A stretch of DNA of 64,000 bases from IMG/VR virus record IMGVR_UViG_2671180890_000004; one strand, 5' to 3'. The notes under the pieces are model-generated. The model was not told the origin of the DNA and ran no database searches. It was given only the letters and a program-made list of their open reading frames with translations. The DNA comes from a virus. Its lineage: Duplodnaviria; Heunggongvirae; Uroviricota; Caudoviricetes. Shown here piece by piece: positions 44,427-48,513 of this stretch. How positions within the stretch are numbered: the stretch's first letter is position 1; each line of letters starts with the position of its first letter. A program made the translations under genes and the position numbers.

Positions 44427-44452
44427 ATAAAAAAGCCCGCATCAGCGGGCTT
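44427..44452 (-). terminator. Hairpin terminator on minus strand downstream of att remnant
   Basis: GCCCGC-TGATG-CGGGC stem followed by T-run when read on the minus strand. Confidence 0.4.
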
Positions 44453-44581
44453 TAATGTCATAGGGAGTCGCGACTCCGTTGCGTATCCTTTTTTGTCTCC
44501 TCACCGTCTGGTCGGTGTCCTGCTGAGACTTATAACTTCCTGTTTTTGTTGGTGTAGTCCTTACACCGTCCAATCATTATT

Positions 44582-44614
44582 TGGTGGAGCTGGCGGGAGT
44601 TGAACCCGTGTCCA
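44582..44614 (-). other. tmRNA (ssrA) 3'-end fragment, prophage attachment-site repeat
   Basis: Minus strand reads GGACACGGGTTCAACTCCCGCCAGCTCCACCA, matching the tmRNA 3' terminus with one mismatch; flanks do not match ssrA. Confidence 0.7.
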
Positions 44615-45039
44615 TAGTTATGTAATTCATTGAATTTAAATAGCCAAATATTGTTGATTTTACACGCGGCTCTTTTGCGGAACTTTTTCTGTCCTGTTAC
44701 TGTCTTACTATTTATTTTAAAATAGTTTCATTTGGAATTAATGGTTTGTGGTTGCAGTTTCGGAGATAGATAGCATTTTTTGCTAAAAAATATTTTTATA
44801 AAAAATGTGTGTAAAAATGATGTTATGCACAGATTTATACACAGAGGCTTTGTAATAAACCAGATTATTTTGGATAAGTTTGTTTTTTTGTGATTTGTCA
44901 ACAATATTATTGACTCTTGTTACTAAAGTGAGTGTTTTCTAAGGTGGCCAGAAGTTGTCCCTTCATGTAATCTTATTAGCCATAAAGAACAAAAAATAAT
45001 TCAACATCATTACCAACTATTTGTAAGATAAGGTTTTTA

Positions 45040-45855
45040 ATGTTGCAGCCAGCAAAAAAAGCATCAGTTATTAGCGCGCGGCTAACTAAATACCTCAAAG
45101 ATGGAGTGAGGATTGATGACTTTAGCTTTAGAAGGATGTTACGTGAGATTGAAGCACTTAGAGATCCTGTCTCTGAGGACTATCTTTTAGCGTTGGTCTA
45201 TGGTGCACATGGTCAAGTGAATGAGGCGATAGGCTTCTTTGAGCGTTCCTTGCAGGTATGCCATAATGAGGTTGTTGCAAAGAATTTTCTTGTTTTCTTG
45301 TCAGATTACGGTACGTTGAAGAAAAGCTTTGAAACAAGCATTAAGCTTGCTGAAAGCTTCATATCCCCGTTTATTTATCTTCAAGCTTATGAAAACTCCC
45401 TCTTTATGGGGAAGATGGCGTTGGCGGAGAAGTATTTCCAGTCATACTCTAAATTGTTCGGAGATAAGGAGCCTGAAAAAATGGACAACCATCTTGATGA
45501 AGTTGTTTCCCAGGTCGAATCCTTTAAGCAACGTGCCGATCTTTCTGGTTTAGAATATGAACTTATTTTCAATAATGTAGCCAATGTCATGGATTCTCAG
45601 AAGGTTCATCTTTCGGGAATGCGTTTTTATAATATTTCGGAAGAGAAAGTGAATGCGATTGTATTCATGACAAAGTCTTCTGATGCTGAACAAATCGCTG
45701 ATATGAATATTGAGCTTGCTTTTTCAATGGCTGAGCACGATTGTTTAGTCGGTAAAGATTTTGCTGTTTGGTTTGAATGTAAAGACACACATATTGAGCA
45801 GAATGCTATCTCCGAATTAGGTCTGATTACCCGGAGGGTTGCACATGCCGGTTAA
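45040..45855 (+). CDS. Hypothetical 271-aa protein, first gene of AT-rich cargo pair
   Basis: ORF after a long AT-rich promoter-like region between att and int; no motif recognised. Confidence 0.45.
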   Translation: MLQPAKKASVISARLTKYLKDGVRIDDFSFRRMLREIEALRDPVSEDYLLALVYGAHGQVNEAIGFFERSLQVCHNEVVAKNFLVFLSDYGTLKKSFETSIKLAESFISPFIYLQAYENSLFMGKMALAEKYFQSYSKLFGDKEPEKMDNHLDEVVSQVESFKQRADLSGLEYELIFNNVANVMDSQKVHLSGMRFYNISEEKVNAIVFMTKSSDAEQIADMNIELAFSMAEHDCLVGKDFAVWFECKDTHIEQNAISELGLITRRVAHAG

Positions 45856-46228
45856 TAGTCAAGATTTTCTCGGTTTTGCAAAAGACTGTCATCAACGTAA
45901 TGACGAAATCGGCTATCGAAATGCTATAGCAAGATCCTACTATGGCGCTTACCATCATGTCTTGCCTTGTATGGTAAACGGGCCGAAAGACAGTCATCAG
46001 GGGCTAATCAATTATTTGCAGGGCGATGCTTCAAGAGGAAGTGAAGTATATGAAGCTAGATATCTAAAAGGGATTAGTTTTATCCTGAGTCAACTTAAAG
46101 CTCAGAGGATTGTTGCAGACTATCGACTTGATCAATCGGTCACTTCTAAACAGTCTGAAGTTGCGATTCTAACAACTGAGAGGCTCTTTGCTAAGTGTAC
46201 GGAAATGCTTAAATCGAGAGCCTCCTAA
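45839..46228 (+). CDS. Hypothetical 129-aa protein with R-x6-H motif (possible HEPN-like)
   Basis: Start overlaps upstream stop by about 17 nt; RSYYGAYHH segment. Confidence 0.45.
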   Translation: MHMPVNSQDFLGFAKDCHQRNDEIGYRNAIARSYYGAYHHVLPCMVNGPKDSHQGLINYLQGDASRGSEVYEARYLKGISFILSQLKAQRIVADYRLDQSVTSKQSEVAILTTERLFAKCTEMLKSRAS

Positions 46229-46231
46229 TTG

Positions 46232-46258
46232 ATAAAGCCACTTAAGTGGCTTTTTTTG
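46232..46258. terminator. Hairpin terminator between cargo pair and integrase
   Basis: AAAGCCACTTAAGTGGCTTTTTTT. Confidence 0.6.
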
Positions 46259-47414
46259 TGATATTGCTGGTCGTATTACCGTCATATTCCTTTAAATATG
46301 AACCATAATGACGAAATAACATTTCCGGCCCTTTATGCCCCATTTGAGCTGCAAGCCAAAACAGGTTTGCTCCCCGGCTGATATGGCGGGTGGCGAATGT
46401 ATGCCTAGTTTGATATGGATTTCTGTAACGAATACCTGCTTTTCGCAATGTTGGCACCCATGCTTTTTTCCTGATTGCATCAGCACTTGCCCAGGGCTTA
46501 TTGGTCTTTGGATCTTCAAAGACAGTAGCATCCTTCATGAATGTAAATGGCTTCTGATTTATCAGCGCCAACATTGCTTCTTCAGTCAGTTCAACTTTAC
46601 GGGTACCGGCTTTTGTCTTTGTCCCTTTGATAACACCGACAACACTTGCGCTCTGGACATGGGCAGTTTTTCCAACAAAGTCGATATCACGCCATCGAAG
46701 GGCACATAATTCAGAACTACGCAGGCCTGTATGTATAGCGAACCGGAACAGATTTTCCCATTGTTTTTTTCCGGCTGCTGCTAGTAATGCATCAACTTCT
46801 GCTGGTGATAGCGGATCAACCACGTAGCTGCTTTCTGCTTCTGACTTATCACTTTGGTAGCGCGAAGCAGTTACCAACGATACGGGGTTAATTTGAAGTA
46901 CCCCATCGGTTACGGCTTCATCAAGTGCTGACCGCAGGAAAGATAACTGGTTGCGAATTGTTTTTAAGGTCGTTTTCTGGCTTTGAATCCACGCTTTCAG
47001 GATTGCTGGTGTTAATTCACTTGCAGGGCAAATGTGGAGTGAGGCTAACGCACTACGGCATTTTTTATAACCACCAATCGTAGAGGGTGAAAGTTTTCTT
47101 GTTTCGCAGATTTCAAGATATTCGTCCAGGTACATCTTTACCGTTTTGCCTGCAGCAGCATTACCAAAAATTTTCAAACGAGCAGAACGGGGAAAATATT
47201 CTGCATAAATGAATGTTCCCCTTTCGATCTTATTATGGATTTCGCCGAGTGTACGCTCGGCGTATTTAATGTTCTTTGGTGTTACTTCCAGATTGGAAAG
47301 CGGCTCACGACATCTAACTCCTTTGTAGGTGAAAGTTATATTGATCGTTTCTCCCTGGCGGTGTTTCCTGATTGTTACGCCGCGCGGTAGTTTGAGCAGT
47401 TTTGTCTGGCCCAT
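46242..47414 (-). CDS. int: Tyrosine integrase
   Basis: 390 aa; C-terminal catalytic region with conserved Arg/His/Tyr pattern; adjacent to att. Confidence 0.9.
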   Translation of the reverse strand: MGQTKLLKLPRGVTIRKHRQGETINITFTYKGVRCREPLSNLEVTPKNIKYAERTLGEIHNKIERGTFIYAEYFPRSARLKIFGNAAAGKTVKMYLDEYLEICETRKLSPSTIGGYKKCRSALASLHICPASELTPAILKAWIQSQKTTLKTIRNQLSFLRSALDEAVTDGVLQINPVSLVTASRYQSDKSEAESSYVVDPLSPAEVDALLAAAGKKQWENLFRFAIHTGLRSSELCALRWRDIDFVGKTAHVQSASVVGVIKGTKTKAGTRKVELTEEAMLALINQKPFTFMKDATVFEDPKTNKPWASADAIRKKAWVPTLRKAGIRYRNPYQTRHTFATRHISRGANLFWLAAQMGHKGPEMLFRHYGSYLKEYDGNTTSNITKKAT

Positions 47415-47622: not shown

Positions 47623-48513
47623 TTAACGAATAGTGTCGTTACTTTGAAGTACAGCAAATGCCATTAATACTTCTAAAGTATATCTTCTATAAAATTTAAC
47701 AAAACCAACATAGAAAACATAGACGAAGAAAAAGCTAAGCATTATTGAAAGTAAACTATAAAGATAATCACTATGAGTACATAATCGATAAATAAAGGTT
47801 GGAACTGATACCCAAAATGAAATTATAAAGATTAAACATATGTTTCTGCAAAAACCATATAATGCAACATAGTTTTGAATTTTTGTTTGATGTTGTTTTG
47901 AAAACTCATAAACATAATGATATGCCAATCTGAAGAGATCATCATCAAGTCCGTTTTTATCTTGTAATAATTGGCGATTTGTTATGAACTTTTTCTCATA
48001 ACCTTCTTTGATCATTAACCATGTTGTATTAGCTAAATGAAATGGTAGAGATTGAGAATAACATAGTTTTTGTGTTATAAAATCCCATAGTATTATTGGA
48101 CATAATACGCATTTGATTATGCGATTCTTTATTTTTGTTTTTTTATCAGCGCTTCTCTCATCGCATGATGGGCTACAAATGCTTTCTGAGGTATCTATCA
48201 ATTTTTTAAATAGATATTTGGAAGGATATCCTAATTCTTTATTCATGTATTTTTCGATAAAAAATGCTGACGTGATAGAAATAAAATGTCCAGCTATATA
48301 AGATATAATAACTATTGAAGCGTAGTTCAAAATGCCAAAGATTTGACTTTGACCTCTGAGCAATTCACTTAAGTCAATAACAATATCTAGATCGAATGTC
48401 AAACCACAGAAATACATTAATAGGATGAAAAAACCACCTGGTATTAAATATCCAAGAAAGTCATAGAATGAGAATGGATTTTGATTCATTGTTGCTCTCC
48501 AATAATTTTTCAA
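47623..48513 (-). CDS. AT-rich membrane protein (two N-terminal and two C-terminal TM helices around a soluble core)
   Basis: 296 aa, low GC, between xis and early-left genes. Confidence 0.5.
   Translation of the reverse strand: MKNYWRATMNQNPFSFYDFLGYLIPGGFFILLMYFCGLTFDLDIVIDLSELLRGQSQIFGILNYASIVIISYIAGHFISITSAFFIEKYMNKELGYPSKYLFKKLIDTSESICSPSCDERSADKKTKIKNRIIKCVLCPIILWDFITQKLCYSQSLPFHLANTTWLMIKEGYEKKFITNRQLLQDKNGLDDDLFRLAYHYVYEFSKQHQTKIQNYVALYGFCRNICLIFIISFWVSVPTFIYRLCTHSDYLYSLLSIMLSFFFVYVFYVGFVKFYRRYTLEVLMAFAVLQSNDTIR

Follow-up and report, generated by a model that had tools for sequence, protein, structure and literature searches.

HEPN RNases are among the most common effectors of bacterial immunity and of toxin-antitoxin (TA) systems. 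In modules that combine a HEPN protein with an MNT nucleotidyltransferase, the partner gene comes first and the HEPN gene second. Other HEPN families are associated with repeat proteins. LA2681-like HEPN domains are fused to, or share an operon with, tetratricopeptide repeat (TPR) proteins and AbiU2 is paired with a Sel1-repeat protein, in the context of biological conflict and abortive infection (PMC3710099, Table 1); both families keep the canonical Rx4-6H motif (PMC3710099). AbiV and the clade typified by AF0298 lack the histidine of this motif, keep the basic residue and possess a second strongly conserved histidine N-terminal of the motif, which was proposed as part of an alternative RNase active site in AF0298-type HEPN proteins and AbiV (PMC3710099). 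For the AF0298/UPF0332 branch, a large one without the canonical catalytic histidine, we are aware of no published demonstration of activity. In Staphylococcus aureus prophages, Tha is a tail-activated HEPN RNase defence that is expressed in the lysogen and has a dedicated inhibitor, the gene of which was formerly annotated as an excisionase (PMC11087260). Here we describe a two-gene cassette in the caudoviral record IMGVR_UViG_2671180890_000004, a stretch of 64,000 nucleotides referred to below as the window. The cassette belongs to a prophage integrated in ssrA, lies at its integrase end and encodes a TPR protein of 271 aa followed by a small HEPN-fold protein. The pair may be a TA-like abortive-infection module, in which the HEPN effector is non-canonical and MNT is replaced by a TPR inhibitor or sensor; we assign this reading a probability of about 0.55.

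The product of the downstream gene (45845..46228, + strand; c3205 or C_RS15240 in Escherichia coli CFT073) is a HEPN-fold protein of the AF0298/UPF0332 type. It falls in phrog_5176, a family of unknown function, and 50 homologs of approximately 125-130 aa were obtained from Enterobacterales, a few of them labelled UPF0332 or HEPN at their source. Among 33 homologs scanned singly, 26 touched the Pfam HEPN family PF05168 (best E 2e-5) and 12 matched the PADLOC model HEPN_IX (best 9e-6); one homolog carries a precomputed PF05168 match. The profile of the small-protein family retrieved from the PDB sequences 9xbd (E=3e-5), 9xbc (E=2e-4) and AF0298 (2hsb, E=0.02). Polyubiquitin matches in the same search were to an 'R-x-x-DY' stretch and were disregarded as spurious. 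The AlphaFold model is all-helical, with a predicted local distance difference test score (pLDDT) of 93.6, and presents the four-helix up-and-down arrangement of HEPN domains. The initial annotation had suspected a HEPN-type RNase, and the structure prediction bore out the fold, in line with the matches of the homologs and of the family profile. The closest solved relatives by sequence are PDB 9xbd and 9xbc, both named 'HEPN domain-containing protein' (125 and 131 aa), which share the R-AYY, S-H and R-x-x-DY features with the small protein; a literature search for 9XBD and 9XBC found no associated paper.

Over 55 unique sequences, reaching down to approximately 29 % identity, the residues E21, R25, N26, A27, R30, Y32, Y33, H37, H51, R88, D92 and Y93 are invariant. 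Because so many polar residues are invariant, an enzyme or a specific ligand site is indicated rather than a mere scaffold. The canonical Rx4-6H motif is expected where helix 3 ends and the last helix is about to begin; this position reads R88-I-V-A-D-Y93. The segment RSYYGAYHH, which the initial annotation had put forward as a possible RNase motif, is present and its R30 and H37 are invariant in the homologs, but alignment to HEPN structures and the helix map place R30-x6-H37 in helix 2, and it was rejected as the HEPN catalytic motif. H51, within the stretch S-H-Q-G-L, aligns with the S-H of 9xbd and corresponds to the second histidine described for the AF0298 clade. The small protein is probably a RNase effector that would use R88 together with H51, possibly with a contribution of R30 and H37.

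The upstream gene (45040..45855, + strand; C_RS15245 in CFT073, the old tag c3206 having been deduced from the adjacency to c3205) encodes a TPR array followed by an unclassified alpha/beta C-terminal domain. Pfam yielded only sub-threshold TPR matches, and the protein belongs to phrog_17809 (function unknown). An AlphaFold2 model calculated from a 10-sequence alignment reached a pLDDT of 86.3 and consists of eight TPR-like helices (residues 4-140), a following pair of helices (152-187) and, at 191-247, a beta-beta-alpha-beta domain. The best-conserved patch of the protein, with the stretches A-D-M-N-x-E-L-A and W-F-E, is located in this C-terminal domain, which had no match in Pfam or among the PDB sequences. 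When 1.84 billion cluster representatives were searched exhaustively with the profile, only 138 relatives came up, nearly all of 250-270 aa and with the same layout. The large protein is not an MNT antitoxin because it lacks the nucleotidyltransferase signature: no family match to a nucleotidyltransferase was obtained in Pfam, NCBIfam, PADLOC or PDB, and its alignments contain no conserved G[GS] or DxD motif. Invariant catalytic-looking residues were also not present in the alignments. PADLOC did not match the protein itself, and among 36 of its homologs gave only scattered chance-level matches. We propose that the large protein is an inhibitor and/or a sensor of the HEPN protein. Besides the full-length relatives, stand-alone proteins of approximately 93-122 aa (P0174, P0179, P0181, P0130, P0195) were observed that start with a methionine and resemble only residues ~150-250 of the large protein. 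Three such loci, on contigs of less than 2 kb, have no adjoining HEPN gene and are uninformative on function; the C-terminal domain may have an independent life outside the cassette.

The pair is translationally coupled and strictly co-inherited. Linkage was assessed in 89 loci, comprising 11 genome loci, 77 viral-contig loci found via the small protein and the CFT073 copy. A reading frame of 250-333 aa is located directly upstream of the small gene in all 89 loci (one is clipped by a contig end), and 88 of these frames encode homologs of the large protein. Nearly all loci show either an overlap of the two genes or a spacing of no more than 17 nt, the widest gap being 43 nt, and loci recovered via the large protein likewise carry a HEPN gene overlapping downstream. 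Two overlapping open reading frames (ORFs) of 271 and 129 aa had been annotated between the attachment site (att) and the integrase. Both were found again and are genuine genes rather than chance frames, with dozens of homologs each and their adjacency in 88 of the 89 related loci. A third homolog search, started from an alignment, brought just three additional sequences, of which two are distant relatives. The 129-aa version is the longest ORF (45839-46228), beginning with a TTG six bases upstream of the ATG at 45845. This ATG is the likely start of the small gene, giving 127 aa, because GGAGGG stands before it at 45833 and because RefSeq uses the same start for CFT073; it overlaps the end of the large gene by 11 nt. 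The cassette is a coupled two-gene operon with the partner first and the HEPN gene second, the order of the MNT-HEPN modules. Compared with the window pair, the HEPN proteins are on average 48 % identical and the partners 32 %, and the HEPN value is the higher one in 60 of 64 distinct pairs.

Such a pair could work as a HEPN toxin-antitoxin or abortive-infection system. In the lysogen, the TPR protein in the place of MNT would keep the HEPN protein inactive, for example by covering the active site or preventing HEPN dimerisation. The RNase activity would be released when a protein of an infecting phage binds the TPR array, or when the partner is lost; translation would then stop and the infection would abort. 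Under a more specific proposal, the cassette would be a previously unnamed anti-phage system in which a TPR sensor or antitoxin with a novel C-terminal domain gates a HEPN RNase with a non-canonical AF0298-type site, formed by R88 and H51 and with tyrosine replacing the catalytic histidine. This we put forward tentatively, at odds that fall short of even.

The cassette is a self-contained two-gene moron of temperate enterobacterial phages, not a core phage gene. It deviates in base composition, brings along an upstream region and a terminator of its own, and occupies several genomic slots. The GC content is below that of the surroundings in nearly all loci, usually with a low-GC gap of 200-500 nt upstream. 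The genomic context was tallied for 88 related loci from Pfam annotations of the neighbouring genes; many loci are near-duplicates, so these counts are not independent events. Thirty loci are convergent with an integrase, of two lambda-type families (14 and 16 loci), 17 are located between the antiterminator Q or DUF968 and a DNA methylase or lysozyme gene, 12 beside umuDC-like genes, 10 after tail tube or tail-chaperone genes, and 19 elsewhere. The cassette was thus present in at least four kinds of slot, all loci being in phage or prophage DNA. Relatives of the small protein are encoded by phages of Enterobacterales, Aeromonas, Vibrio and Gilliamella. Among 50,697 deposited phage genomes, only three contain a distant relative; their names and sizes (32-37 kb) are those of temperate phages or prophages, and no virulent phage of this collection is among the carriers.

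This distribution bears on the idea that the cassette serves the phage in counter-defence or host takeover, the TPR protein for instance sequestering a host immune sensor while the HEPN protein degrades host RNA. The confinement of all loci to phage or prophage DNA would fit, as would the 17 loci of the Q/lysis region, where the cassette would come under late lytic transcription. However, each cassette has an upstream region of its own, usually 200-500 nt away from the neighbours, the copy in the window lies at the prophage's far end, convergent with the integrase, and the three deposited phage genomes with relatives include none that is virulent. A role in counter-defence is therefore regarded as very improbable. 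In the Q/lysis context, a 350-aa N6/N4 DNA methyltransferase gene directly follows the module in L062-L069 and L089, and the order is reversed in L060. HEPN genes are often embedded in restriction-modification operons; the methylase at these loci may simply be a common lambdoid orphan methylase. In L025-L029, the module is separated from a lambda-type integrase by a gene for a DUF2971 protein of 320 aa, which begins approximately 300-500 nt downstream. DS-45, a validated defence system of DefensePredictor, is another DUF2971-domain protein, of 181 aa (PMC13092281 supplement).

The position between att and the integrase is a hotspot for exchangeable cargo. The integrase was detected at a coverage of at least 80 % in 395 of 5,426 complete E. 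coli genomes, and the cassette in 43. Eight sampled genomes with the integrase and without the cassette contained six other cargo sets between att and int (L120-L127): DarT with a DarT1-associated NADAR antitoxin (two genomes), an AAA ATPase with a DNA adenine methylase (Dam; two genomes), three genes including one for a STAS-like protein (UTI89), three genes of which the last encodes a SecB-like chaperone (one genome), a single gene for a 259-aa protein (a ST131 strain) and a pair encoding 272 and 82 aa (one genome). The set ending in the SecB-like chaperone has the layout of a toxin-antitoxin-chaperone (TAC) module. Homology between the integrase alleles breaks off in the last 30-70 nt of int, and the recombination breakpoint lies inside this short segment. 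It had been stated for this locus that an integrase-adjacent slot is a usual site of defence or TA cargo, which agrees well with the DarT-NADAR pair, the SecB-like three-gene set and the ATPase with methylase carried by E. coli with the same integrase. In related prophages the slot holds known TA or defence modules, and the positional argument is well founded.

The same observations have to be considered with respect to a plain addiction module, a TA pair that stabilises the prophage or the cassette and takes no part in the exclusion of other phages. Its architecture would be the same: the genes are coupled, the likely antitoxin precedes, and the effector is conserved whereas its partner evolves fast. 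The spread of the cassette over unrelated slots resembles a selfish element, and one other strain has a SecB-like module of TAC type in this slot. On the other hand, a TPR partner of 271 aa is far bigger than simple neutralisation requires, TPR arrays typically bind other proteins, and many prophage TA modules act in defence, for example DarTG, which is present in this very slot. We consider pure addiction rather unlikely; addiction and defence are compatible with each other.

The surroundings of the cassette in the window correspond to those in CFT073-type E. coli chromosomes, to which the window is at least 99 % identical. In CFT073, lhgO and glaH of the host come first, then two genes annotated as 'hypothetical protein', a gene for a site-specific integrase in convergent orientation, and a lambdoid prophage that contains yfdPQR, repressors of the cI/cro type, Q, lysis genes and terminase. 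The window likewise has glaH and lhgO to the left of a 3'-terminal fragment of ssrA (44582..44629, - strand; TGGTGGAGCTGGCGGGAGTTGAACCCG), while a complete transfer-messenger RNA (tmRNA) gene was not found in the window. The fragment is a copy of the attachment-site core at the integrase end of the ssrA-integrated prophage and forms the outer edge of the cargo slot; an att remnant had been recognised here already, and the partial match to the Rfam tmRNA family (E=2.2e-6) supports this assignment. The inner edge is the tyrosine integrase gene (46242..47414, - strand), with the Pfam domains Arm-DNA-bind_2 and Phage_integrase, which is convergent with the cassette. The cassette is closed by a predicted intrinsic-terminator hairpin on the + strand (46234..46253), found in the terminator scan, with a stem of 8 bp and a T7 tail; it folds with -10.3 kcal/mol, and its loop contains the stop codon of the integrase. 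The hairpin had been announced by the initial annotation, as had the very AT-rich DNA of about 400 bp before the cassette, for which we measured 410 bp and 28.5 % GC (44630..45039, + strand). For comparison, the cassette has 40-41 % GC, the flanking host genes 55.9 % and the window a mean of 52.1 %.

This leader presumably holds a promoter or operator of the cassette. In the alignment of upstream regions, two non-coding blocks at 44822-44843 (GTTATGCACAGATTTATACACA) and 44943-44975 (GGTGG...CTTCATGTAATCTTA) as well as the ribosome-binding site region at 45022-45033 are kept between diverged cassettes whose large proteins share only 56-59 % identity. The first two blocks are, judged from this conservation, candidate promoter, operator or 5'-untranslated region elements. 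A further hairpin and a further reading frame were noticed around the slot. On the host side, the spacer between glaH and the att fragment contains a strong terminator-like hairpin (44432-44453, - strand) with a 9-bp stem, six GC pairs and a T-run; it also gave a sub-threshold Rfam Leu_leader match and is probably just a terminator. Beyond the integrase and a small xis-like gene, an ORF of 296 aa (47623-48513, - strand) with 28.5 % GC had no Pfam match, and its sequence looks hydrophobic by eye, suggesting several membrane-spanning segments. It is present in CFT073 and UTI89, whereas two small genes, WP_001331173 and yfdS, take its place in other strains that share the integrase; its position looks like a second variable moron slot.

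Several points weigh against an abortive-infection module. The function of the pair is deduced from sequence and context only. The small protein of the window itself stays below every Pfam threshold (no match at E<=1), has no NCBIfam match, and its sole PADLOC match is a weak one to the generic model HEPN_IX (E=1.3e-3). The large protein matches no known antitoxin. No promoter could be assigned, a sigma-70 scan of the + strand of the leader giving no strong or convincing consensus. The location in a hotspot is circumstantial, since such slots also carry non-defence morons. Neither cassette protein, nor the accessions of the CFT073 homologs, are among the cloned and tested systems in the available part of the DefensePredictor supplement (PMC13092281). 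Finally, the canonical catalytic histidine of the small protein is absent; the arginine is kept and a tyrosine is found instead of the histidine in 54 of the 55 unique sequences. Because of this absence, RNase activity is not assured.

The last point leads to an explanation in which the HEPN protein is non-catalytic and the pair a binding or regulatory complex, for example with a nucleotide or RNA as ligand or with a modulating role in host or prophage physiology. The motif R88-x4-Y93 is in line with it, many solved UPF0332/HEPN proteins are without demonstrated activity, and HEPN domains without the motif are often binding domains (PMC3710099). Against it, the family retains eleven invariant residues, polar or aromatic, at identities as low as ~29 %, beyond the needs of fold maintenance, and this invariant set includes both the motif arginine and the alternative histidine singled out for the AF0298 clade; the distribution, moreover, is that of an accessory module and not of a core phage function. 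A non-catalytic complex is accordingly judged unlikely, and a HEPN effector under the control of a TPR partner remains our preferred interpretation.

The domain assignments as such are not new, since the two proteins already go under the names 'tetratricopeptide repeat protein' and 'HEPN domain-containing protein' in databases. A literature search found no paper on the accessions of the cassette, the locus tags c3205 and c3206 or a TPR-HEPN pair, and no defined system of PADLOC-DB v2.0.0 was significantly matched by either protein. New are the novel partner of a HEPN toxin-type module and the non-canonical site, a combination that is unsurprising to the specialist and an experimentally accessible candidate. 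The cassette offers a clean genetic setting, two genes on ~1.6 kb with their own leader and terminator in E. coli including the uropathogen CFT073, and the defined invariant residues make the hypothesis of an alternative active site directly testable by mutation. If the proposed function holds, it would be the first genetically tractable E. coli test case for the 'alternative active site' of UPF0332/AF0298 proteins and would reveal a new way of controlling a HEPN toxin without an MNT partner. To the possible controls of HEPN toxins it adds a TPR-type partner that includes a domain without known relatives. The att-int slot of this ssrA prophage family, where sister prophages carry DarTG, is a compact and easily mined hotspot of swappable cargo.

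Among the described systems, AF0298/UPF0332 proteins (2hsb; the 'HEPN-T' clade of Anantharaman et al. 2013) have ~15 % identity to the small protein. The cassette family differs from it in the additional invariant residues E21, R25, N26 and H37 and in having a TPR protein as partner instead of a nucleotidyltransferase. In the HEPN-MNT systems, represented by SO_3166/SO_3165 of Shewanella (5yep) and the HEPN/MNT pair of Aphanizomenon (7ae2/7ae8), the partner is a nucleotidyltransferase, whereas the cassette partner has neither the domain nor its motif and the cassette HEPN protein has a tyrosine for the catalytic histidine; as the partner is not MNT, neutralisation by AMPylation is not expected. 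With LA2681 and AbiU2 the cassette has in common that a HEPN protein is genetically linked to a repeat protein of the TPR class, yet the small protein and its homologs match neither Pfam HEPN_LA2681 nor HEPN_AbiU2. AbiV of Lactococcus (9bj5/9bj7) likewise combines a HEPN fold with the lack of the canonical histidine and an alternative histidine upstream, but the Foldseek match is weak (TM ~0.4) and AbiV, of ~200 aa, is encoded by a single gene without a TPR partner. DS-28 in the available part of the DefensePredictor supplement, a HEPN protein with a 252-aa partner, was rejected as a relative; there was no resemblance by eye, the gene order is reversed and it has a canonical RNxxxH. The DarTG and TAC-like modules resemble the cassette in att-int position, orientation, similar size and the associated integrase in other E. 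coli, and differ in their unrelated proteins and chemistry, that is DNA ADP-ribosylation and a chaperone-dependent antitoxin. Tha may be regarded as the closest functional precedent, as a functional analogue only: it belongs to another host and phage lineage, and its inhibitor is small and encoded antisense, whereas the partner in the cassette is a co-transcribed TPR protein.

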